Counted from the stretch's first letter, positions 1 through 61,206 are shown. The stretch is DNA of 64,000 bases from Deltaproteobacteria bacterium (GCA_016182975.1 JACPFJ010000028.1:4948-68947); one strand, 5' to 3'. A program made the numbers and translations. The notes: generated by a model from the letters alone, not told the origin.

Positions 1-7
1 GAATCCG

Positions 8-571
8 GTGCGGGCGGTGATGGTGAAGCTCCCGGAGGATTACCCGTGGAGCGGCCATCGTGCGTATCTCGGCAGGGAAACACTGCCGTGGTTGACAACC
101 GATTGGGTACTCTCGCTTCTCGGCCGGAGAATCGATTCTGCCCGCAAGGCTTACCGGCAATTCGTTGCTGATGGAATGGATGAGGGGAAAAGGGACGAGT
201 TTCACAGCGGAACATGCGAGGGACGTATCCTGGGTGACGACGACTTTGCCGATGACGCTCTGTGCAAAGCGAATCAGATTCGTAGGCGGGAGTGGACGCT
301 GACGGAAGTCGTCGCTTCTGTTTGCCGCCGGTACGGGATTACAGAGGAACAACTGAGGTCGCCGGGCAAGGCTCGGACTTTCAGTGAAGCGAGAGCGCTT
401 GCCGCTGTAATCGTACAGGAATCACCACACCTTTTCCTGACAGAACTGGGGAAGTTATTCAACCGAGATGTGTCAACCATTGGCAAGGCGGCGCAAAGAA
501 TGATATATCGTTCTCAGACCGATGATCCGCTGGCAACGAATATCGAAGCAGTACGGAGAGACCTGGGGTAA
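8..571 (+). CDS. C-terminal part of a RayT/IS200-type (COG1943-like) Y1 transposase with a DnaA-C-like HTH; the 5' end lies outside the window
   Basis: The ORF is open at the window edge. 'VKLPEDYPWSGHRAYLG' resembles the conserved '..PEDYPWSS..' tail of REP-associated tyrosine transposases. 'LTEVVASVCRRYGITEEQLRSPGKARTFSEARALAAVIV' resembles a DnaA domain-IV HTH. The catalytic domain is not visible. Confidence 0.5.
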   Translation: MRAVMVKLPEDYPWSGHRAYLGRETLPWLTTDWVLSLLGRRIDSARKAYRQFVADGMDEGKRDEFHSGTCEGRILGDDDFADDALCKANQIRRREWTLTEVVASVCRRYGITEEQLRSPGKARTFSEARALAAVIVQESPHLFLTELGKLFNRDVSTIGKAAQRMIYRSQTDDPLATNIEAVRRDLG

Positions 572-6247: not shown

Positions 6248-7075
6248 GTGTCAATTTCGGATAAAGATTTCGAACAACTGCGGGACTTCATCTATAACAT
6301 CTGCGGTATGTACTTCCACTCCACCAAGAAGTATTTCCTGGAGAGCCGTCTAACCCGCAGGATGGATGCCACCGGGACCAACTCCTATCAGGACTATTAC
6401 CAACTCCTCAAGTCCCTGCGGGGGGGAGAGGAACTGAAGTTCCTGATGGACGAGATCACCACCAACGAGACCTACTTCTTCCGTAACGTGCCCCAGTTGA
6501 ACGCCCTGGAGACCAAGCTGTTGCCGGAAATCGTCGAGTCCAAGACCAAGATGGGTTTCCGCAAGCTGCGCATCTGGAGCGCCGGCTCATCGTCGGGCGA
6601 AGAGGCCTACACGCTATCCATGATCCTGCTGGAAAAGCGCGCCGGGCTGCTCAAGGATTGGATCATCGAGATCATCGGCACCGACATCAACGAAACGGTG
6701 ATCTCCCAGGCCAAGGAGGGGATCTACAACGCCTATTCGGTCCGTAACATCCCCGACCTTTACAAACGCAAGTATATCCGCGAGGACGGCGGCAAGTTCA
6801 TCCTCTCCCCCGACGTGAAGAAGTTCGTCACCTTCAACAAGCTCAACCTATATGATGACTCGAAGATGATCTTCATGAAGAGTTTCGACTTCATCTTTTG
6901 CGCCAACGTACTGATCTATTTCGATACGGCATCCAAATCCAAGGTTGTCCAGCACTTCTACAACAACCTGCAGCCGTACGGCTACTTTTTTGTCGGCCAG
7001 TCCGAGTCCCTGCACGGGGTCAATGACAAGTTCAAGACGGTGCATTTTCCCGGTGGTTTCACCTATAAAAAATAG
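6248..7075 (+). CDS. cheR: Chemotaxis protein methyltransferase CheR
   Basis: 'ETYFFRN' and the SAM-binding block 'RIWSAGSSSGEEAYTLSMIL'. GTG start. Confidence 0.9.
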   Translation: MSISDKDFEQLRDFIYNICGMYFHSTKKYFLESRLTRRMDATGTNSYQDYYQLLKSLRGGEELKFLMDEITTNETYFFRNVPQLNALETKLLPEIVESKTKMGFRKLRIWSAGSSSGEEAYTLSMILLEKRAGLLKDWIIEIIGTDINETVISQAKEGIYNAYSVRNIPDLYKRKYIREDGGKFILSPDVKKFVTFNKLNLYDDSKMIFMKSFDFIFCANVLIYFDTASKSKVVQHFYNNLQPYGYFFVGQSESLHGVNDKFKTVHFPGGFTYKK

Positions 7076-7092
7076 CCTGAAAGGTTTGAAAC

Positions 7093-7989
7093 ATGGATAA
7101 AGTCGCAATGATCGCAAAAGCCGAGCAACTGGTGGCGAAGATCGACGATCTGCCCACCATCCCGGTGGTCGCCACCCAGGTGCTGCAGCTCCTCGACCAG
7201 CCGGACGTGCGGATCGAGCAGGTGGCCGATCTGATGCTTTCCGACCAGGTCATGGCGGCTCGGGTGTTGAAGATGGTCAACTCGCCGGTCTACAAGCCGG
7301 GCCAGGAGATCACCTCGCTCAAGCGGGCCCTGGTCTACCTGGGATTGAAGCATATCCGCGAGGTGGCGCTGACCACCTCGTTCATCGATGCCTTTGATGA
7401 GAATGCCGGCGCATTCGAGATCAGCACATTCTGGGAACACTCCTTCGGCGTCGGCATGGTGTCCAAGATAATCGCCGGGAAGATCGGCTATCACGACCAG
7501 GAACAGGCCTATATCGCCGGCATCATCCACGATCTCGGCGAGGTGTTTCTCAGCAACTTCCTGCGGGATGAATTCCAGGCGGTGTTGGACAGCATCAAGG
7601 ACAAGCCGGTCAAGCTGGTTGACGCCGAAGCGGAGCAGCTTGGCACCAGCCACTGCGAGATCGGTCTCTGCATGGCGCGCAAATGGAACTTCCCCGAGGT
7701 GTACTGCGAGGTGATCGCCTATCACCATACCCCTTCCGAGGCGACCATCGACCCGGTCCTGTGCGCCATCGTCAACCTCTCCGACCTGTTTTGCAGCGTG
7801 CGGGAGCTCAACTACGGCGGCAGGGAGTGGGTCAGCTTCAATCTCTTCGAAGAGCAGGCCTGGCAGATCCTGAAAAAGGAGTCGCCCAGCCTGGCCGAGC
7901 TCGACGTGGAACGTTTCTGCTACGAACTTGACGATGCCATCCCCGACGTGAAAGAGCTGGTCAGATCTATCTTCAACTCAAAGGAATAG
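7093..7989 (+). CDS. HDOD domain signalling protein
   Basis: 'LPTIPVVATQVLQLLDQPDV..VADLMLSDQVMAARVLKMVNSP' plus 'AGIIHDLGEVFL' and 'HCEIGLCMARKWNFPE..IAYHH' are typical HDOD features. Confidence 0.85.
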   Translation: MDKVAMIAKAEQLVAKIDDLPTIPVVATQVLQLLDQPDVRIEQVADLMLSDQVMAARVLKMVNSPVYKPGQEITSLKRALVYLGLKHIREVALTTSFIDAFDENAGAFEISTFWEHSFGVGMVSKIIAGKIGYHDQEQAYIAGIIHDLGEVFLSNFLRDEFQAVLDSIKDKPVKLVDAEAEQLGTSHCEIGLCMARKWNFPEVYCEVIAYHHTPSEATIDPVLCAIVNLSDLFCSVRELNYGGREWVSFNLFEEQAWQILKKESPSLAELDVERFCYELDDAIPDVKELVRSIFNSKE

Positions 7990-9331: not shown

Positions 9332-9748
9332 TTAGTTCGCTTCAAAAGGATTTAAGAGAACCGCGCCTGTTCGCATCACATCACGAACATTACGCGTAAC
9401 CAGGGTTAGATTGTGGTGAAGCGCCGTCGCCGCCAAGAGTCCATCTATGACCGAGATGGGATCGGGTATCCCCATTCGACCCCAACAATCGGCAATTTCG
9501 GCCGTGACCGGCAGAATTCGGTCGCCGGCCTCACCTCTGACGGAAAAAAGCCAGTTTTCAAGTCGTTCCGCACCTATTTCGTCACGACGACGCATCAGTT
9601 CAATTCCGTGACGGATCTCTCCCAAGACGAGTGTCGAAATGTGGATGTCCTCCGAAGCAATGGAATCAAACCAGAGTCGAACGTTGGCATCCATGCGCGC
9701 GCCTTTCCGCAATTCCGAAAGGACATTCGTATCTATCAGGAATCCCAT
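9332..9748 (-). CDS. vapC: PIN-domain toxin (VapC/FitB-like)
   Basis: 'FLIDTNVLSELRKG' is the N-terminal PIN acidic motif. 138 aa. It overlaps the upstream small antitoxin-like ORF. Confidence 0.8.
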   Translation of the reverse strand: MGFLIDTNVLSELRKGARMDANVRLWFDSIASEDIHISTLVLGEIRHGIELMRRRDEIGAERLENWLFSVRGEAGDRILPVTAEIADCWGRMGIPDPISVIDGLLAATALHHNLTLVTRNVRDVMRTGAVLLNPFEAN

Positions 9749-9960
9749 GACACATCCCTGCGCCCAAAATCCCTCTGCCGCGCAAAATCCTCGTCCGTGC
9801 CGACGTCCGGCATATCCGCCAGTAATGATTTGAGGGAGCGACCGGGCTTGTCATTTTCATCAAGCGGCCAGAGGATAATCTCCAGACGCCTGTGTTGCAA
9901 TTCCAGCGGCAGTGGCAAGAGCGGAGGTGCATCATTAATTATTTGTCTAATGGGTTGCAT
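9736..9960 (-). CDS. Putative VapB-type antitoxin
   Basis: 74-aa ORF beginning MQPIRQ at the ATG at 9960. GGAGG lies 8 nt upstream. It overlaps vapC by 13 nt. The longer track ORF (to 10014) has no RBS. Confidence 0.55.
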   Translation of the reverse strand: MQPIRQIINDAPPLLPLPLELQHRRLEIILWPLDENDKPGRSLKSLLADMPDVGTDEDFARQRDFGRRDVSWDS

Positions 9961-10047
9961 ACTGTTTACCTCCGGATAATGGATAAAACGTAAACAATAA
10001 CAATATATCACCAATAAACTTGTAATGCACTGAATTCAGGTGAATTC

Positions 10048-11631
10048 CTATGAATGCTCGCTGGTCTCGTGGAACTCCAGCCCCTTCCAGTTCTCGATGG
10101 TGTTGTCCAGGCGCCACTGGCTGCCGGCCATGTAGGTCAGCTTCCCCTCGCCGTCGATGTAGACGTGCATGGCCTCCCGCTTCTCGAACTCCTCGATCCG
10201 TTTCCTCTCACCCGTGACCCAGCGGGCGGTGACGTAGCTGACCGGCTCGAAGGCCACCTTGACCCCGTATTCGTGCTCCAGGCGGTGCATGACCACCTCG
10301 AACTGCAACAGCCCCACCGCGCCGATGACCCAGTCGGCACCCATCAGCGGCTTGAAGACCTGGGTGGCGCCCTCCTCGGCCAGCTGCACCAGCCCCTTCT
10401 CCAGGGCCTTGGACTTCATCGGGTTCAAGAGGCGCACCTTGCGGAAGTGTTCCGGGGCGAAGCTGGGGATGCCGGTGAACTTCAGCTCCTCGCCCTGGGT
10501 GAAGGTGTCGCCGATCTTGATCGTGCCGTGGTTGTGGATGCCGATTATGTCCCCCGGCCAGGCCTCCTCCACATTGGTGCGGTCCTGGGCCATGAAGATG
10601 GTGGCGTTGGCGATCTGCACGTCACGCCCCAGCCGGACATGCCTGACCTTCATGCCGCGGGTGAACCGGCCGGAGCAGATGCGGAAAAAGGCGATCCGGT
10701 CGCGGTGGGCCGGGTCCATGTTTGCCTGGATCTTGAAGGTAAAACCGCTGAAGGGCTCCTCGTATGGGGAGACCGCCCTGGTGACGGTCTCGCGGGGAAG
10801 CGGCGCCGGTGCGTGCGCCACGAAGGCGTCCAGGAGTTGCTGGACGCCGAAGGTGTTGATGGCGCTGCCGAAGAAGACCGGAGTTTGCCGGCCGGCCAGG
10901 TAGGCCTCCCTGTCAAAGGGGTGGGCGGCCCCCTCCAGCAGCTCCACGTCGTGGCGCAACTCCGTCACCTGACTCCCCAGGAGCTCATCCAGCAGAGGGT
11001 CGTCCAGGCCGGTGACGGTCAGAACGCGTCCGGTGCCGTTCTGCGCCTCGGCGTCGAAGAAGGTCAACTCCTTGGTGTGGAGGTGATAGGTGCCCCGGAA
11101 GCGCTTGCCCATCCCCACCGGCCAGGTGACCGGCGCGGTCTGCATCCGCAGGTTCTTTTCAATGTCGTCCAGTAGGTCCAGCGGTTCCTGCCCCTCCCGG
11201 TCCAGCTTGTTCATGAAGGTCATGATCGGGGTGTGGCGCAGGCGGCAGACATCCAGCAGTTTCCTGGTCTGGCTCTCCACCCCCTTGACCGAGTCGATCA
11301 CCATCAGCACCGAGTCAACCGCGGTCAGCACCCGGTAGGTGTCCTCGGAGAAGTCGTTATGGCCCGGGGTGTCGAGCAGGTTGATCTCGCAGCCGTTGTA
11401 GGTGAATTTCATCACCGACGAGGTGACCGAAATGCCGCGCTGCTTCTCCAGCTCCATCCAGTCCGAGGTCGCATGGCGCGCGCTCTTCCTGGCCCGGACC
11501 TCGCCGGCCTGCTGGATGGCGCCGCCGAAGAGCAGCAGCTTCTCGGTTATGGTCGTCTTGCCGGCGTCCGGGTGGCTGATGATGGCGAAGGTGCGTCTTT
11601 TATCCACTTCCTGTTGATTATGCCTCTGCAC
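10048..11631 (-). CDS. prfC: Peptide chain release factor 3
   Basis: GTPase motifs '[12 protein letters not shown]', 'DTPGHNDF' and 'NKLDR'. The 527-aa length is typical. Confidence 0.95.
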
Positions 11632-12382: not shown

Positions 12383-12459
12383 TGGCGGGCGGCATGGGAT
12401 TCGAACCCACGACCCCAGGCTTCGGAGGCCTGTACTCTATCCAGCTGAGCTAACCGCCC
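12383..12459 (-). tRNA. tRNA-Arg (anticodon CCG)
   Basis: The reverse complement folds as a cloverleaf: GGGCGGT-TA-GCTC..GAGT-A-CAGGC-CUCCGAA-GCCTG-GGGTC-GTGGG-TTCGAAT-CCCAT-GCCGCCC-G-CCA. CCA is encoded. Confidence 0.85.
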
Positions 12460-14461: not shown

Positions 14462-15175
14462 ATGCCTGCTGCCAAACGCCCCCCAGCGAAACATCAACCC
14501 AAAGGGCTTCCGATCCTCTACGAGGACAGGGATATCATCGTGGTGGAAAAACCGGGCGGCCTCTTGACGATGGGGACGGACCGGGACAAGTCGCGAACGG
14601 TCCACACCATTCTCAACGAGTATGTCCGCAAGGGGGACCCCCGTTCAAGAAACCGTGTCTACATCGTCCACCGCCTGGACCGCGAGACCTCCGGCATCCT
14701 GATCCTTGCCAAGAGCGAGCCGGCCAAGTCCTTTCTGCAGGGGCACTGGCAGGAGACCGACAAGCGCTACCTTACGGTCGTATACGGCCAGCTTGCGCCG
14801 AAGGCGGGGACGATCAGCAGCTACCTGGCCGAGAACAGCGCCTTTAAGGTCTATTCCACCCCCGATCCGGCACTGGGGCGGTTGTCCCATACCGAGTATA
14901 CGGTCCTGAAAGAGGCCAAAGGGTTCAGCCTGCTCGAAATCCACCTGCTCACCGGCCGCAAACACCAGATACGGGTGCACCTGTCGGAAAAGGGCAACCC
15001 CGTCGTGGGTGACGGAAAATACGGCAGGGGGAGCGATGCCCATGGCACCCTGGCACTGCATGCCAGATCGATCTCTTTCACACACCCTGTCAGCGGCAAA
15101 CGGCTGACCTTTGAAACCGGCATCCCGGATCTTTTTACCCGCCTGGTCGGGAAGATAGAAACGCCGGCAGCCTGA
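14462..15175 (+). CDS. RluA-family pseudouridine synthase
   Basis: 'HRLDRETSGILILAK' catalytic Asp motif and 'GRKHQIRVHL'. Confidence 0.9.
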   Translation: MPAAKRPPAKHQPKGLPILYEDRDIIVVEKPGGLLTMGTDRDKSRTVHTILNEYVRKGDPRSRNRVYIVHRLDRETSGILILAKSEPAKSFLQGHWQETDKRYLTVVYGQLAPKAGTISSYLAENSAFKVYSTPDPALGRLSHTEYTVLKEAKGFSLLEIHLLTGRKHQIRVHLSEKGNPVVGDGKYGRGSDAHGTLALHARSISFTHPVSGKRLTFETGIPDLFTRLVGKIETPAA

Positions 15176-15395
15176 TCGATCCCGCGACAACCTCTCGGGC
15201 TCTTAGTGAATCTCAGGTTCTACCCCAGGATTCCGATTGTGGAATGATTAGCAGGGGTTCCCTTTCGTGCTTTTCGTGTATTTCGTGGACCAGGATTGTT
15301 GTTGATGTGCTCCGTTGACAGGCGGGTAGCGCTGGGGCGGCCTTTTTTTATTCAACTGCCTTTTCAGGCCATAAACTGCAAGAAGAGAAAAACGG

Positions 15396-15755
15396 TTGCA
15401 CATTGTTCTCAAATATACAACAAATGAAGCTATTGTGAGAACAACAGCGAATAAACAGATAAAAACCAGCGGTCTGGCGGAAACCCTTTTCAGCGATTAC
15501 CGGCGGCGGGTGCTGGCCCTGTTGCTGCTGCGTCCCGACGAGCATTTCCATGTCAGAGAGATTTCCCGGTTGACGGCAATCCCGGCAGGGTCACTGCATC
15601 GGGAGCTCAAGCTGCTTGCGGATGCCGGACTCCTGGAGCGGCATGCGCAGGGCAATCAGGTCCGTTATCAGGCCAACCTGGATTGCCCTATTTTCACCGA
15701 ACTGGCCGGCATCTTCCGCAAGACCAGCGGTCTGGGGGCGACTCTAGGGACGTAG
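15396..15755 (+). pseudogene. Winged-helix (ArsR-like) N-terminal domain. Likely a truncated HTH-nucleotidyltransferase gene.
   Basis: 'LFSDYRRRVLALLLL..FHVREISRLTAIPAGSLHRELKLLADAGLL..GNQVRYQAN...IFRKTSGL' matches, from memory, the N-terminal half of wHTH+NTase proteins. The ORF stops inside the palindrome at 15747. Confidence 0.4.
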
Positions 15756-15862
15756 TTTATTTGTCTAGTAACTCCGACAAAAAAGCACGTTAGTGAACTA
15801 ATAAACAACGTCCCCGGCGGGGTCCCCGCTTCGCTCCGCCGGTGCGCCTTGTAACGTTGAAC
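15747..15862. repeat. Structured site 1: a 68-bp imperfect palindrome followed by an attC-like unit (AAACAAC...GTTGAAC)
   Basis: GGGACGTAGTTTATT (15747-) pairs with AATAAACAACGTCCC (-15814). Then come the inverted CCGGCGG and CCGCCGG, a central CCGCTTCGCTCCGC, and a terminal GTTGAAC (15856-15862). Confidence 0.55.
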
Positions 15863-15883
15863 GAAAAGAGAGAGGAATTAAAT

Positions 15884-16198
15884 ATGCCGACGATCCGAAC
15901 TCTTAGCGGAAGAAACTCCTTTTCGTACACAGGAAACTGCAAAGAAGGGTTTTATCTGGAGTACTCCGACCGCCCCTTCGTCTCCCCTCAAGTTATTTCC
16001 TCAATTACTTCATTTTTTTGTGGCACCACAGTCATTGGAGGCTTCAATGTCAGCAATCCCAAAGGCTTCGGAAAGTGGCTCCAAGAAAACACTTCTTTCA
16101 CATCAAGACATGGCTCACATATCGCCGCAGTATTGGCTCATGAAGACTTGCTGGTGCCTTCCTGGGACGGGAACCGAATACTGCTTCATTTTCGCTAG
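15884..16198 (+). CDS. Hypothetical protein (cassette ORF A)
   Basis: ATG at 15884 preceded by AGAGAGGA. 104 aa. Low-GC context. No family recognised. Confidence 0.5.
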   Translation: MPTIRTLSGRNSFSYTGNCKEGFYLEYSDRPFVSPQVISSITSFFCGTTVIGGFNVSNPKGFGKWLQENTSFTSRHGSHIAAVLAHEDLLVPSWDGNRILLHFR

Positions 16199-16225
16199 TC
16201 AGCATTCGTAAAAGAGGAGGCACCC

Positions 16226-16609
16226 TTGTCAGTTCAGGCCATTGTTGTCGCGATTATTTCCTCACTTATTTCAGGATTGGTCGGCGTGGCAGTTTCGGCG
16301 TGGTTTTTCTACAAGCTGGAGCGACACAAACTGAAACTCGACCTTGCACGTAGACTGTTAGGAAACCGGTTCAGTATTTTGGGTGACAACTTCTCATGTG
16401 CAATGAACGAGGTCATTGCAGTTTTCGCTGACTCTCCAGAAGTGCTTGAAAAGATGGGGCGGCTTTATGAGGCACTTCAGGTGCCGGGAAAACCAAATGC
16501 TAACGGGGCGCTCATGGACTTTCTTAAGGCGGTTTGCAAGAGTTCGGGGCTTACGCAGGCGACTTTGAACGATGGTTACCTCATCAAAACGTTAAATGCC
16601 AGAAACTAA
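16226..16609 (+). CDS. Hypothetical N-terminally membrane-anchored protein (cassette ORF B)
   Basis: TTG start 6 nt after AGAGGAGG. One TM (IVVAIISSLISGLVGVAVSAWFFY) then a soluble domain. No family recognised. Confidence 0.5.
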   Translation: MSVQAIVVAIISSLISGLVGVAVSAWFFYKLERHKLKLDLARRLLGNRFSILGDNFSCAMNEVIAVFADSPEVLEKMGRLYEALQVPGKPNANGALMDFLKAVCKSSGLTQATLNDGYLIKTLNARN

Positions 16610-16676
16610 CGTCCAACAAGGCTAGTAGACCGGTCGCGATAAACCCCGCGCCGGTCACCGCCAAGCCGTTATGACA
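16605..16676. repeat. Structured site 2 (attC-like): GTCCAAC ... GTTATGA
   Basis: It starts at the stop codon of ORF B. GTCCAAC (16611-16617) fits RYYYAAC. Inner inverted repeats are GACCGG..CCGGTC and CGCG..CGCG. It ends with GCCGTTATGAC. Confidence 0.5.
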
Positions 16677-16734
16677 CGAATATGATGAAAACAAAAAGGC
16701 AAAACGGCGAGAAGGCGAGCCAAGCGAGGATTCA

Positions 16735-17028
16735 ATGCAAATGGGTGAGATACAGCAGAACTACAGGAAGAGAAAAACCATCTACTTGGGTTTAATTGCA
16801 GCCTTATTTGCAATTCTCATAGCCTTTCGATTTATCGCACCAGAGGGCGAACATAAAGTAACATCACTAGAAGCAATGATGATTGTCTCGCTAATCGGGA
16901 TTGTTGTAGCTATCTATGCAGTATTCCGCTGCCCAAAATGCAAGACTGCCCTGGTCCCAGCATATTCCGCATCATGGGGAAAGCTGAACCACTGTCCAAA
17001 GTGTGGTGTCAATCTGTCTGGCAAATGA
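16735..17028 (+). CDS. Hypothetical two-TM protein with a C-terminal zinc ribbon (cassette ORF C)
   Basis: Two hydrophobic helices then 'CPKC..(x17)..CPKC'. 97 aa. Confidence 0.5.
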   Translation: MQMGEIQQNYRKRKTIYLGLIAALFAILIAFRFIAPEGEHKVTSLEAMMIVSLIGIVVAIYAVFRCPKCKTALVPAYSASWGKLNHCPKCGVNLSGK

Positions 17029-17048
17029 AGCACCTGTGAGGGCAGTGA

Positions 17049-17121
17049 ATAAACAACGTCATAACTAAGCGCAGCAGCAGTCTCCGCTTCGCTCCGCTGC
17101 TGTACTCTCCCATGTTGGGCA
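17049..17121. repeat. Structured site 3 (attC-like): AAACAAC ... GTTGGGC
   Basis: It shares AATAAACAACGTC and the central CCGCTTCGCTCCGC with site 1. Inverted repeats are CAGCAGCAG and CTGCTG. The terminal GTTGGGC fits GTTRRRY. Confidence 0.55.
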
Positions 17122-17240
17122 GAAAGTGAAATAAATTTAGAATTGATGGGGGTTAGATGCGGGGACGATGGAGCGTTATTGGCAAGTGGGACTGAAACAA
17201 CGTGAAGTCTTCATCTGTGGTGAATAGAGGAGGACAGGGT

Positions 17241-17328
17241 GTTTATTTGTTTACTAACGCTGACTTGACTGCGACATGATAAACAAATAAACAACGTCAC
17301 CGGAGAGGCCCGTCACCGGAGAGGCCCC
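17241..17328. repeat. 14-bp perfect hairpin plus a fourth AAACAACGTC box and a 16-nt tandem duplication
   Basis: TGTTTATTTGTTTA (17241-54) pairs with TAAACAAATAAACA (17281-94). GTCACCGGAGAGGCCC occurs twice in tandem (17297-17312 and 17313-17328). Confidence 0.8.
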
Positions 17329-17442
17329 TGGCAGAGGAAGGTCGTATATCATTGAAGTTCGTAACAGACGACATATCAATTGGTTAGTAGTCGCAATTTG
17401 ACAAATTGACTACGTCCCCGGATGGGTCCCCCAGCCCTGAAT

Positions 17443-17661
17443 TTACCACTCATCGCGCATCTTCCGCTGGGTTGCTACGGCATCTCCCTTCCAGGACAGC
17501 TTGCCGCAGAGATCTGAGAAACGGTAAGTTGCCGCATGTTGAGTTTTCATTTTCTTCGTTTTGCCGCTCCGGTACAAAAGAAACTGATAAAAATCCCGTA
17601 CCTCTCGCCGTGAAGACGCGGGCAGAACGGAAAGATCGAGCAGGTCGGCTGTTGTCGCCAT
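17443..17661 (-). CDS. DUF2281-like antitoxin-type small protein with no partner toxin visible
   Basis: 'LSVLPASSRREVRDFYQFLL' and the C-terminal 'WKGDAVATQRKMRDEW' resemble, from memory, DUF2281 antitoxins that normally precede PIN toxins. Confidence 0.5.
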   Translation of the reverse strand: MATTADLLDLSVLPASSRREVRDFYQFLLYRSGKTKKMKTQHAATYRFSDLCGKLSWKGDAVATQRKMRDEW

Positions 17662-17862
17662 AACTTATACCCCCTTACGGCAAAAAAGTAGCATAGCGAT
17701 ATGAAAGTGACAAGCTTTCCATCAGTGATAACGGAATTCCCGCATGCTCACCAACTGCCTGAAAACCTTCCCCACCCTCCATTCCGGAGCCATTGGGGGA
17801 CATGACAAAGTAAACCTTGGTCAATTACGGGTCGCTTAAATTGATGTCACGACGGAGCGCAT

Positions 17863-18360
17863 ATGAATGCAACGGCCAGCTACTGGATCGACCGCCTCTC
17901 CCTCATTCGCCACCCTGAGGGGGGATGGTTCTGCGAAACCTACCGCTCGGCCGGGTCGGTGGCGGCCTGCGCCCTGCCGGTGCGCTTCGGGGGGGAACGC
18001 TCCCTTTCCACCGCCATCTACTTTCTGCTGGAGGCGGGGGAATTTTCCGCCTTCCACCGGATAAAGTCCGACGAGATGTGGCATGCCTACACGGGTGATG
18101 CGCTGACGGTGCATGTGATCGACCCGGATGGGGAATACCGGGCACTCAGGCTGGGGGGCGTCCCGGAGCGGGGAGAGTGCTTTCAGGGGGTGGTGCCGGC
18201 GGGGTGCTGGTTTGCGGCGGAAACGGAAGGGGAATATTCCCTCGTAGGCTGCACCGTCTCCCCCGGTTTCGCCTTTGAAGATTTCGAGATGGCGGCGCGC
18301 GGCGCGCTCGTTTCGCTCTATCCAAGGCATCGGGAGCTGATCACCAGGTTCACCCGTTGA
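17863..18360 (+). CDS. Cupin-superfamily protein (DUF985-like)
   Basis: 'WIDRLSLIRHPEGGWFCETYRS...IYFLL...SAFHRIKSDEMWH' is typical of DUF985 cupins. Confidence 0.75.
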   Translation: MNATASYWIDRLSLIRHPEGGWFCETYRSAGSVAACALPVRFGGERSLSTAIYFLLEAGEFSAFHRIKSDEMWHAYTGDALTVHVIDPDGEYRALRLGGVPERGECFQGVVPAGCWFAAETEGEYSLVGCTVSPGFAFEDFEMAARGALVSLYPRHRELITRFTR

Positions 18361-61097: not shown

Positions 61098-61206
61098 TTC
61101 TTATCTAGAGCGACCGAGGGACTGGCCCTTTGACGTCGCGGCAACCAGCCTGAGAAGGCAAGGTGCCAATTCCAGCGGGATCGCAAGGTCCCGGGAGATA
61201 AGGAAG
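61098..61206 (+). promoter_or_regulatory. SAM-I (S-box) riboswitch
   Basis: TTCTTATCTAGAGCGACCGAGGGACTGGCCCTTTGACGTCGCGGCAACC...AAGGTGCCAATTCCAGC...GGGAGATAAGGAAG matches the conserved S-box core (P1 TTCTTATC/GATAAGGA, GAGGGA, GGCCC, GCAACC, GTGCCAATTCC). Confidence 0.9.

Follow-up and report, generated by a model that had tools for sequence, protein, structure and literature searches.

Deltaproteobacteria bacterium, a Geobacter-like deltaproteobacterial metagenome-assembled genome (MAG), carries a short low-GC block within a stretch of 64,000 nucleotides (GCA_016182975.1, JACPFJ010000028.1:4948-68947; the whole stretch is referred to here as the window). This block is probably the remnant of an integrase-less cassette array, i.e., a cluster of attC sites lacking an integron integrase (CALIN), on which palindromic repeats similar to REPINs (paired repetitive extragenic palindromic, or REP, sequences) are superimposed. 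A CALIN-like array had been proposed in a preliminary description made from the sequence alone. The core of that proposal is supported by the rank of one site (site 3) with an attC covariance model, by box complementarity at two cassette junctions (7/7 and 6/7 positions), by the presence of the second open reading frame (ORF2) in other arrays, and by the lack of an integrase, whereas the identity of a shared box, the account of sites 1 and 4, and the point at which a neighboring gene is truncated were wrong. The attC reading accounts for the interior of the block: sites 1 to 3, the layout of the ORFs, and the mobility of ORF2.

A low-GC islet with two predicted cassettes

GC content is 0.45 to 0.51 over positions 15700-17650, compared to 0.60 to 0.72 in the flanking genes, and the zone of low GC as a whole spans about 15100-17950. 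The islet itself, of ∼2.7 kb, occupies the interval between rluA, which ends at 15175, and a cupin gene starting at 17863. The GC drop described earlier for a block of ∼1.7 kb was borne out, in a broader zone than stated. Nearly all features listed in the preliminary description are present, although several of its coordinates were 1 to 3 bases off. Within the islet, the following elements were delimited:

15857-16668 (+ strand, 812 bp): cassette 1, beginning with TTGAAC of one R' and ending with the G of the following R', with ORF1, ORF2, and attC site 2
15885-16198 (+): ORF1, an orphan in cassette 1, possibly not a gene
16226-16609 (+): ORF2, DUF6680-like, in cassette 1
16669-17114 (+, 446 bp): cassette 2, with ORF3 and attC site 3
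16735-17028 (+): ORF3, a small protein with predicted membrane helices and a zinc ribbon, in cassette 2
17121-17433 (no strand assigned): degenerate tail with palindrome D/C, a 16-nt tandem duplication, and the solitary palindrome unit E

All three small ORFs lie on the plus strand, as had been described; of these supposed orphans, ORF1 is a true one, whereas ORF2 has more than 180 homologues. ORF1 was not called as a gene on the corresponding contig of the Logan assembly, and it may be noncoding. The degenerate tail (17121-17433) contains no ORF, no attC site, no attC-like fold, and no match to the attC model. Scanning of the block for promoters and terminators gave background levels, and Rfam yielded no family for the sites, either at gathering thresholds over the 64 kb or at a relaxed E value over the block.

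The window was searched by tblastn with an IntI1 query that was 100% identical to plasmid copies, which gave nothing below an E value of 0.6. Likewise, the tyrosine-recombinase motif HxLRH...LGH...Y was absent from all six frames. Both searches, which were negative for IntI and Xer-like recombinases, agree with the earlier statement that no tyrosine recombinase is present in the 64 kb.

Candidate attC sites

Three sites were retained as attC candidates:

15800-15862 (+): site 1, degraded attC; apex CCGGCGG...GCTTCGC...CCGCCGG; R' GTTGAAC at 15856-15862
16611-16674 (+, 64 nt): site 2, attC of cassette 1; GTCCAAC-AAGGCTA-GT[A]GACCGG[T]CGCG-loop-CGCGCCGGTCAC-CGCCAAGCC-GTTATGA
17059-17120 (+, 62 nt): site 3, attC of cassette 2; R'' TCATAAC, spacer TAAGC, L'' GCA[G]CAGCA, apex CCGCTTCGCTCCGC, L' TGCTGTAC, R' GTTGGGC

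For scoring, a home-made covariance model (R1) was built from 15 aligned attC sites of class-1 integrons on plasmids, with helices for R''/R' (7 bp) and L''/L' (8 bp plus one bulge); being a small substitute, it gives only rough E values. R1 generalized to sequences outside its training set, as it recovered eight co-oriented sites with E values of 1e-5 to 1e-8 in a Lysobacterales MAG (locus L021; loci from other genomes are given by L numbers). With filters off, an R1 search of the entire window put site 3 at the top (23.5 bits, E 8.7e-4), all other matches reaching at most 10.7 bits, and a second model (R2), in which R1 was enlarged with environmental sites, likewise placed site 3 first (17.8 bits, E 0.07). 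When the block alone was searched with R1, sites 1 and 2 were found at their predicted places and on the predicted strand, with 8.2 bits (E 0.55 in 6 kb) and 5.1 bits, respectively. The attC-model check suggested earlier singled out site 3 but left sites 1 and 2 at noise level, and for these two we relied on their structure and on the logic of the junctions rather than on the scores.

Sites 2 and 3 conform to the attC architecture (R''-spacer-L''...L'-spacer-R', 57 to 141 nt, imperfect hairpin with extrahelical bases on one strand), and the bulged bases of both occupy the 5' arm of the top strand, where the training attCs have theirs. The fold of site 2 has a z score of -2.8 on both strands. 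Site 1 lacks a canonical, pairable L box and shares its 5' part with arm B of a palindrome (see below). Box GTCCAAC of site 2 was found where it had been reported, at 16611-16617 and one base past the TAA stop codon, and the reported R'-type ends are present as well (GTTGAAC at 15856-15862, GTTATGA at 16668-16674, and GTTGGGC at 17114-17120). In contrast, AAACAACGTC, which had been taken for the opening R'' box of the attC sites, belongs to a palindrome family; the R'' box of site 3 is TCATAAC (17059), 8 nt downstream of the AAACAAC assigned earlier. Internal inverted repeats had been ascribed to all sites, but the fourth proposed site (17289-17345) is unstructured (fold z +0.2/+0.7) and contains a 16-nt tandem duplication (17295-17326) instead; it was rejected as an attC. 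A long attC at 17252-17389 (TACTAAC/GTTAGTA, complementary at 7/7 positions) was rejected, too, having no hairpin (z about 0).

As had been noticed from the sequence, sites 1 and 3 have a central sequence in common: the 14-mer CCGCTTCGCTCCGC occurs in exact copies at 15826 and 17084 only in the window. The 13-mer CCGCTTCGCTCCG at the center of both sites is identical to the center of the aac(6')-29 attC, and related GCTTCGC apexes are found in the attCs of aadA1, aadB, qacL, dfrA5, and dfrA14. GCTTCGC or close variants (GCTGCGC, GCTACGC) were seen at many attC apexes in loci L022 to L035 as well as in the window (15826-15839 and 17084-17097). On the bottom strand, which is the one that recombines, the motif reads GCGAAGC, an unusually stable DNA mini-hairpin; a GCTTCGC apex may assist the folding of that strand specifically. 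An exact scan for AAACAACGTC-N8-35-CCGCTTCGCTCCGC gave 0 matches in GTDB genomes and one match in JGI metagenomes, which lies by chance inside a membrane-protein gene.

Box complementarity across cassette junctions

In integrons, crossover occurs between the G and the TT of R', the last six R' bases belonging to the next cassette; the R' box that precedes a cassette is therefore complementary to the R'' box of the attC in that cassette. In the block, TCATAAC (R'' of site 3) and GTTATGA (R' of site 2) form an exact reverse-complementary pair (7/7), and between GTCCAAC (R'' of site 2) and GTTGAAC (R' of site 1) 6/7 positions are complementary. The R'' and R' boxes within each site have only AAC/GTT in common plus at most one further position. 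By a rough estimate based on the nonconsensus positions only, the probability of such junction complementarity by chance is ∼1e-3. As a positive control, a real class-1 array (L035) kept the rule at four of its five junctions, each with 7/7 (estX to HAD, HAD to aadA2, aadA2 to cmlA1, and aadA1 to qacL). Judged from these sequences, the junction complementarity is the apparent footprint of cassette insertion by IntI. The R''/R' matches define cassette 1 as 15857-16668 and cassette 2 as 16669-17114.

Folding of the bottom strand had been proposed as a check, and each attC was therefore folded after being joined to the 5' end of its own cassette, as in an excised circle. In the joined form the R boxes paired and the bottom strand folded end to end (-16.5 kcal/mol for site 2 plus TTGAAC, the 5' end of its own cassette), with single-base bulges confined to one arm, which is the arm holding the extrahelical bases in canonical attCs; the check came out as expected. 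Where a small covariance model gives poor scores to weak attC sites, as it did here, these can be confirmed by the cross-cassette R''/R' rule.

ORF2 as a cassette gene in other genomes

Homologues of ORF2 (more than 180, with 72 to 87% identity) are attributed to Deltaproteobacteria, Geobacter, Chlorobium, Clostridia- and Actinobacteria-type MAGs, Achromobacter, and Marinobacter. In the eight-site array of L021, the homologue is flanked by attC-model matches (9859-9961 and 10379-10481), and matches on either side, although weak, were also found in L011. Further attC-model matches lie 3' of the homologue in L016 and L018 and 5' of it in L019 and L037. In L016 (Candidatus Aquicultor MAG), a C-terminal remnant of IntI (7806-7931), 66.7% identical to IntI1 residues 289-330 and ending in ...GVRSPVDML*, is located just past purH, on the same strand as the ORF2 homologue and ∼215 bp upstream of it. 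Neighbors of ORF2 showed no detectable similarity between loci, which fits the expectation for independent cassettes. These neighborhoods indicate that ORF2 is a cassette gene elsewhere, and a widespread DUF6680-like protein is hereby identified as the product of a cassette gene in MAGs assigned to many phyla.

The L011 locus (9735-11500) has the look of a two-cassette mini-array, with the ORF2 homologue followed by a 300-aa HNH_2 protein, between adh_short and Fe-ADH genes, and appears to be another integrase-less cassette insertion. A conserved pair of ORF2 and a partner of ∼300 aa was considered and rejected, as the neighbors in L010, L011, and L037 are mutually dissimilar.

Palindromic units and toxin-antitoxin remnants at both ends of the array

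Box AAACAACGTC, which had been reported as shared between sites, is present in exact copies at 15803, 17051, and 17289 (two of these positions having been given one base off) and nowhere else in the 64 kb. It forms the inner part of a unit of ∼39 nt, GGGG…GGGACGT(A/T)GTTTATTTGT...TAAC (fuller form, GGGGnCnnnnnnGGGACGT[A/T]GTTTATTTGTnTAnTAAC; also written GGGACGTWGTTTATTTGT). Five full or near-full copies and one partial copy, which align with each other, were found:

15734-15772: unit A
15789-15827: unit B
17221-17259: unit D
17273-17311: unit C
17383-17433: unit E
17048-17061 (+): box F, the partial unit copy AATAAACAACGTCA, directly 5' of site 3
15734-15827 (94 bp): palindrome A/B, two inverted ∼39-nt units, GGGGGCGACTCTAGGGACGTAGTTTATTTGTCTAGTAAC and GTTAGTGAACTAATAAACAACGTCCCCGGCGGGGTCCCC, 16 nt apart
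17221-17311 (91 bp): palindrome D/C, with perfect 14-nt arms (17240-17253 and 17280-17293); z -5.0 (17230-17330)

The inverted pairs A/B and D/C fold into hairpins of ∼90 nt. In A/B, which confirms the left boundary palindrome of the preliminary description (arms 15734-15772 and 15789-15827), the arms are 72% complementary over 39 nt and the DNA fold has -18.6 kcal/mol and a z score of -2.9. The bracketing direct repeat noted earlier is real as well: 15796-15825 and 17400-17429 are 77% identical and are preceded by GTTAGTG (15789) and GTTAGTA (17383), respectively. Units A and E, in inverted orientation, are placed opposite each other with the whole block between them. The boundary palindrome, the bracketing repeat, and the shared box can all be traced to the units, as can the exact points of truncation. 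Two genes flank the array:

15435-15755 (+): 5' fragment of a winged helix-turn-helix (wHTH)-nucleotidyltransferase (NTase) gene (MNT-like antitoxin or regulator), with MarR_2/HTH_20 matches; start possibly TTG at 15396
17443-17661 (-): orphan VapB/DUF2281-like antitoxin gene (DUF2281, E 0.008; TA_VapB, E 0.0016; both weak)

The wHTH fragment comprises 106 to 119 aa and retains the winged helix only, whereas full-length members among its ∼157 homologues have ∼180 aa and contain PF18765/PF01909 nucleotidyltransferase domains. Family homology runs to FRKTSGL (∼15738), followed by GATLGT*, and the last six codons and the stop codon are derived from palindrome arm A. Since tblastn with five full-length homologues matched 15534-15752 only in the window, with no NTase remnant, the NTase half is gone and not displaced. 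The outer end of A coincides with the wHTH breakpoint, and 10 nt separate the outer end of E from the stop codon of the antitoxin gene. No toxin gene follows the VapB-like gene on its downstream side, toward the block, where one would be expected. The truncation of the wHTH gene is therefore real, as had been claimed, but the cut is at the outer end of a palindrome unit and not at an attC.

Among public wHTH-NTase homologues, a large share is truncated, frameshifted, or internally deleted at differing points (e.g., L003 and L006, the L006 copy having an internal deletion), and the family, judged from these sequences, seems to decay often. An operator-like region, CAAATATAnnACAAATGAAGC, upstream of the wHTH-NTase gene stays conserved despite gene decay. 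The possibility that the wHTH-NTase gene is itself a cassette found no support, as a full-length locus (L039) gave no attC match.

Given these ends, the whole block might be a nonautonomous transposon resembling a mobile insertion cassette or an integron mobilization unit, which has A (15734) and E (17433) as its ends, is served by a transposase in trans, and landed in the wHTH-NTase gene with the cassettes as passengers. In favor of this, A and E are in inverted orientation with 75% complementarity over 32 nt, the breaks in both flanking genes fall exactly on the outer arm ends, and a Logan contig is broken inside arm D, which points to further copies of the unit in the sample. The arms also read GGGG...TAAC, which loosely recalls Tn3-family elements, whose 38-bp inverted repeats run GGGG...TAAG. 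However, no target-site duplication was present at A...E (GGTCT/AGCCC) or at the 94-bp A/B (GGTCT/GCTTC), and a reading of the arms as Tn3-derived miniature elements (TIMEs) was rejected for lack of such duplications. No transposase of a matching family was found in the window, blastn of the A/B palindrome against 72,556 plasmids gave no match, and a simple insertion would account neither for the loss of the 3' half of the NTase gene nor for the absence of the toxin gene. Moreover, a transposon of this kind would explain the arrival of the block and not its internal attC features. We consider this alternative unlikely.

The units also raise the question of whether anything in the block is integron derived, or whether the four proposed sites are REP/REPIN-like members or fragments together with ordinary hairpins, their likeness to attC being coincidental. 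The repeat-family box opens three of the four sites, sites 1 and 2 are at noise level with the attC model, and in a locus of a Geobacter sp. MAG (L007), which gave no attC matches, numerous sites of this kind separate co-oriented ORFs. In contrast, site 2 is unlike the repeat family, site 3 is the best attC match in the 64 kb, and cross-cassette complementarity at 7/7 and 6/7 positions is unexpected for REP sequences. In addition, ORF2 lies between strong attC matches in L021 and beside an IntI remnant in L016. Pure coincidence is, on this evidence, improbable.

Y1 transposase genes near related units

Related units were found next to RAYT-like Y1 (IS200-like) transposase genes in two Geobacteraceae loci. 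In L007, GGGACGT[AT] is enriched (8 observed versus 1.2 expected), and the ORF2 homologue is bracketed by GGGACGTAG palindromes (9828-9925 and 10402-10566) in place of attC sites. One palindrome (10491-10566) is 96% complementary and is abutted by a frameshifted Y1 transposase remnant (10537-10967, -), which adjoins the ORF2 homologue. Many intergenic sites in L007 end in ...AACTCAAGCACGTCCCC, like the L'-spacer part of the aadA1 attC, followed by GTC instead of GTT, and the attC model had no matches in this locus. In L038 (Geomonas anaerohicana), an intact 342-aa protein combines a Pfam Y1_Tnp match with a DnaA-C-like helix-turn-helix (HTH); it scores 63.5 bits with the NCBIfam model of REP-associated tyrosine transposases (RAYTs), under the cutoff of 80. 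Directly upstream of this gene (7044-7223) there are 8.5 tandem 21-nt units (Tandem Repeats Finder consensus AATCGGAAAACGTGCATCATAA, some copies AAAATCGGAAAACGTCCCTCT), which in sequence look like an iteron-type array for binding of the Y1 protein.

The window itself carries a gene of this type:

2-571 (+): C-terminal half of a Y1 (IS200/RAYT-like) transposase with a DnaA-C-type HTH, cut at the 5' window edge

The encoded protein is 28.5% identical to residues 123 to 322 of the Geomonas protein and matches Pfam Bac_DnaA_C with 41.7 bits; its 3' flank is without a palindrome unit. Two copies of a 19-nt direct repeat, CCGACCCCAGAGCCCTTCC, follow right after its stop codon (588-627) and are unrelated to the GGGACGT units.

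By their association with such genes in other genomes, we infer that the units are REP/REPIN-like sequences of a RAYT-like Y1 enzyme. They resemble REPIN-RAYT systems in that ∼39-nt units occur as inverted pairs forming 76- to 94-bp hairpins, with a GC-rich mini-hairpin beside a conserved GTAG/GTTG, and in that related units cluster beside Y1 genes in L007 and L038. They differ in that the Y1 proteins have ∼340 aa and a DnaA-C-like HTH, with a RAYT score of 63.5 against the cutoff of 80, and in that the units of the window are confined to this block.

An undescribed cassette system, named earlier as the alternative to a CALIN, is not needed for the cassettes. For the palindromes, where it seems very unlikely, it would take the following form: the GGGACGT(A/T)G hairpins could be sites of a separate Y1/HUH system that moves cassettes, shuttling modules such as ORF2 via single-stranded hairpins, in parallel to integrons or by exploiting them. 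The bracketing of ORF2 by family palindromes in two genomes (the window and L007, 9828-9925 and 10402-10566) would fit this idea, as would the Y1 remnant beside the ORF2 homologue and the position of the L007 sites just upstream of successive co-oriented ORFs, with ends (...AACTCAAGCACGTCCCC) like the aadA1 L'-spacer and GTC for GTT. Yet only two loci are involved, and the L007 "array" may, at least in part, belong to the ordinary chromosome, its first complete ORF (SnoaL-like, 236-706) having homologues of 83 to 85% identity in Geomonas isolate genomes. No module with different neighbors and breakpoints at hairpins turned up, and REP sequences commonly cluster at a RAYT gene without moving cargo. 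Overall, we regard such a separate system as highly doubtful. Were it to exist, a Y1/HUH enzyme (RAYT-like, with a DnaA-type HTH) would capture or relocate small gene modules, including integron cassettes, and a second shuffling system would meet attC biology in Geobacter-like bacteria, which is a long shot. The palindrome family beside Y1-DnaA_C genes is the more open lead, if a modest one; should the hairpins be active, they could explain rearrangement or movement of integrase-less cassette clusters.

Proposed history of the block and comparison with known systems

For the reading preferred here, a remnant CALIN with superimposed REPIN-like units, the following course of events is proposed. 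Recombination of the IntI type (attC with attC or attI, with crossover at G/TT of R') would have stacked at least three cassettes, two of which survive intact, while site 1 represents the attC of a further, upstream cassette in eroded form. Promoterless and co-oriented with the truncated wHTH gene, the cassettes would be expressed, if at all, by read-through from the wHTH promoter. The unrelated ∼39-nt repeat family is superimposed on the array and is seen at both array ends, with its outer ends at the breakpoints of two toxin-antitoxin operons. Rearrangement or deletion between palindrome units, and not attC recombination, probably truncated the flanking genes; deletion or inversion between inverted units and arrival of a composite bounded by A...E, followed by deletion, are both possibilities.

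Several observations weigh against parts of this reading. For the whole window, the scores of site 1 (8.2 bits) and site 2 (5.1 bits) are at noise level, the R1 training set is small, and the apex motif, being present in two training sequences, feeds part of the site 3 score. The spacers of site 2 (7 and 9 nt) are noncanonical and its R' box (GTTATGA) fits GTTRRRY at 5/7 positions only, while the third cassette is without a terminal attC and ORF1 had 0 homologues among 1.84 billion representatives. Contiguity across 17239-17267 depends on the MAG assembly alone, as the Logan contigs of the sample (SRR12113422) break there. As for the link to REPINs and RAYTs, it consists of association in other genomes only; the units within the 64 kb are restricted to this block, and the Y1 gene of the window is cut by the edge and lies 15 kb away from the block.

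Clusters of attC sites without an integrase occur commonly and have been described in detail (Cury et al. 2016, PMC4889954), and Geobacter species are known to harbor integrons (PMC2426708, PMC3001079). The criterion for a CALIN is a minimum of two attC sites recognized by the attC covariance model on the same strand within 4 kb. Like other CALINs, the block has at least two co-oriented attC-type sites less than 1 kb apart, each closing a promoterless small-ORF cassette, keeps the R''/R' logic of IntI with no intI nearby, and combines foreign GC content with toxin-antitoxin genes adjoining the array. Unlike in these, a single site is significant with the substitute model, one attC is eroded, and the tail is degenerate. 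With class-1 and chromosomal attCs (aadA1, aac(6')-29, cmlA1, and estX) the sites have in common a length of 62 to 64 nt, RYYYAAC...GTTRRRY ends, an extrahelical L-box base on the top-strand 5' arm, and the GCTTCGC apex, including the 13-mer CCGCTTCGCTCCG identical to that of the aac(6')-29 attC, whereas the site 2 spacers of 7 and 9 nt exceed the usual 5 to 6 nt, and agreement with the consensus is limited to 5/7 positions both for R'' of site 3 and for R' of site 2.

Short elements in inverted repeat reportedly bracket a cassette array in the integron mobilization units of Poirel et al. (2009), and class 1 integrons flanked by miniature inverted-repeat transposable elements (MITEs) occur in Acinetobacter. 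The block is similar to both in being bracketed by short elements in inverted orientation, and differs from them in having no target-site duplication, elements of ∼90 bp rather than 288 to 439 bp, and no integrase inside. Taken as a whole, it is a real but fairly ordinary mobile-DNA scar, which adds a CALIN in a Geobacter-like MAG and illustrates how cassette arrays decay among toxin-antitoxin remnants. It also shows that a cassette array can be spotted by a reader of the raw sequence.

Minor observations

The Logan contigs of SRR12113422 break at 15263 and have a mere 29-nt overlap inside palindrome arm D (17239-17267); both breaks suggest repeats or strain variants. Outside the islet, the window contains a tRNA-Arg(CCG) gene (12383-12459, -) and an S-adenosylmethionine (SAM) riboswitch (61098-61204, +; 94 bits), which are ordinary and unrelated to the block.

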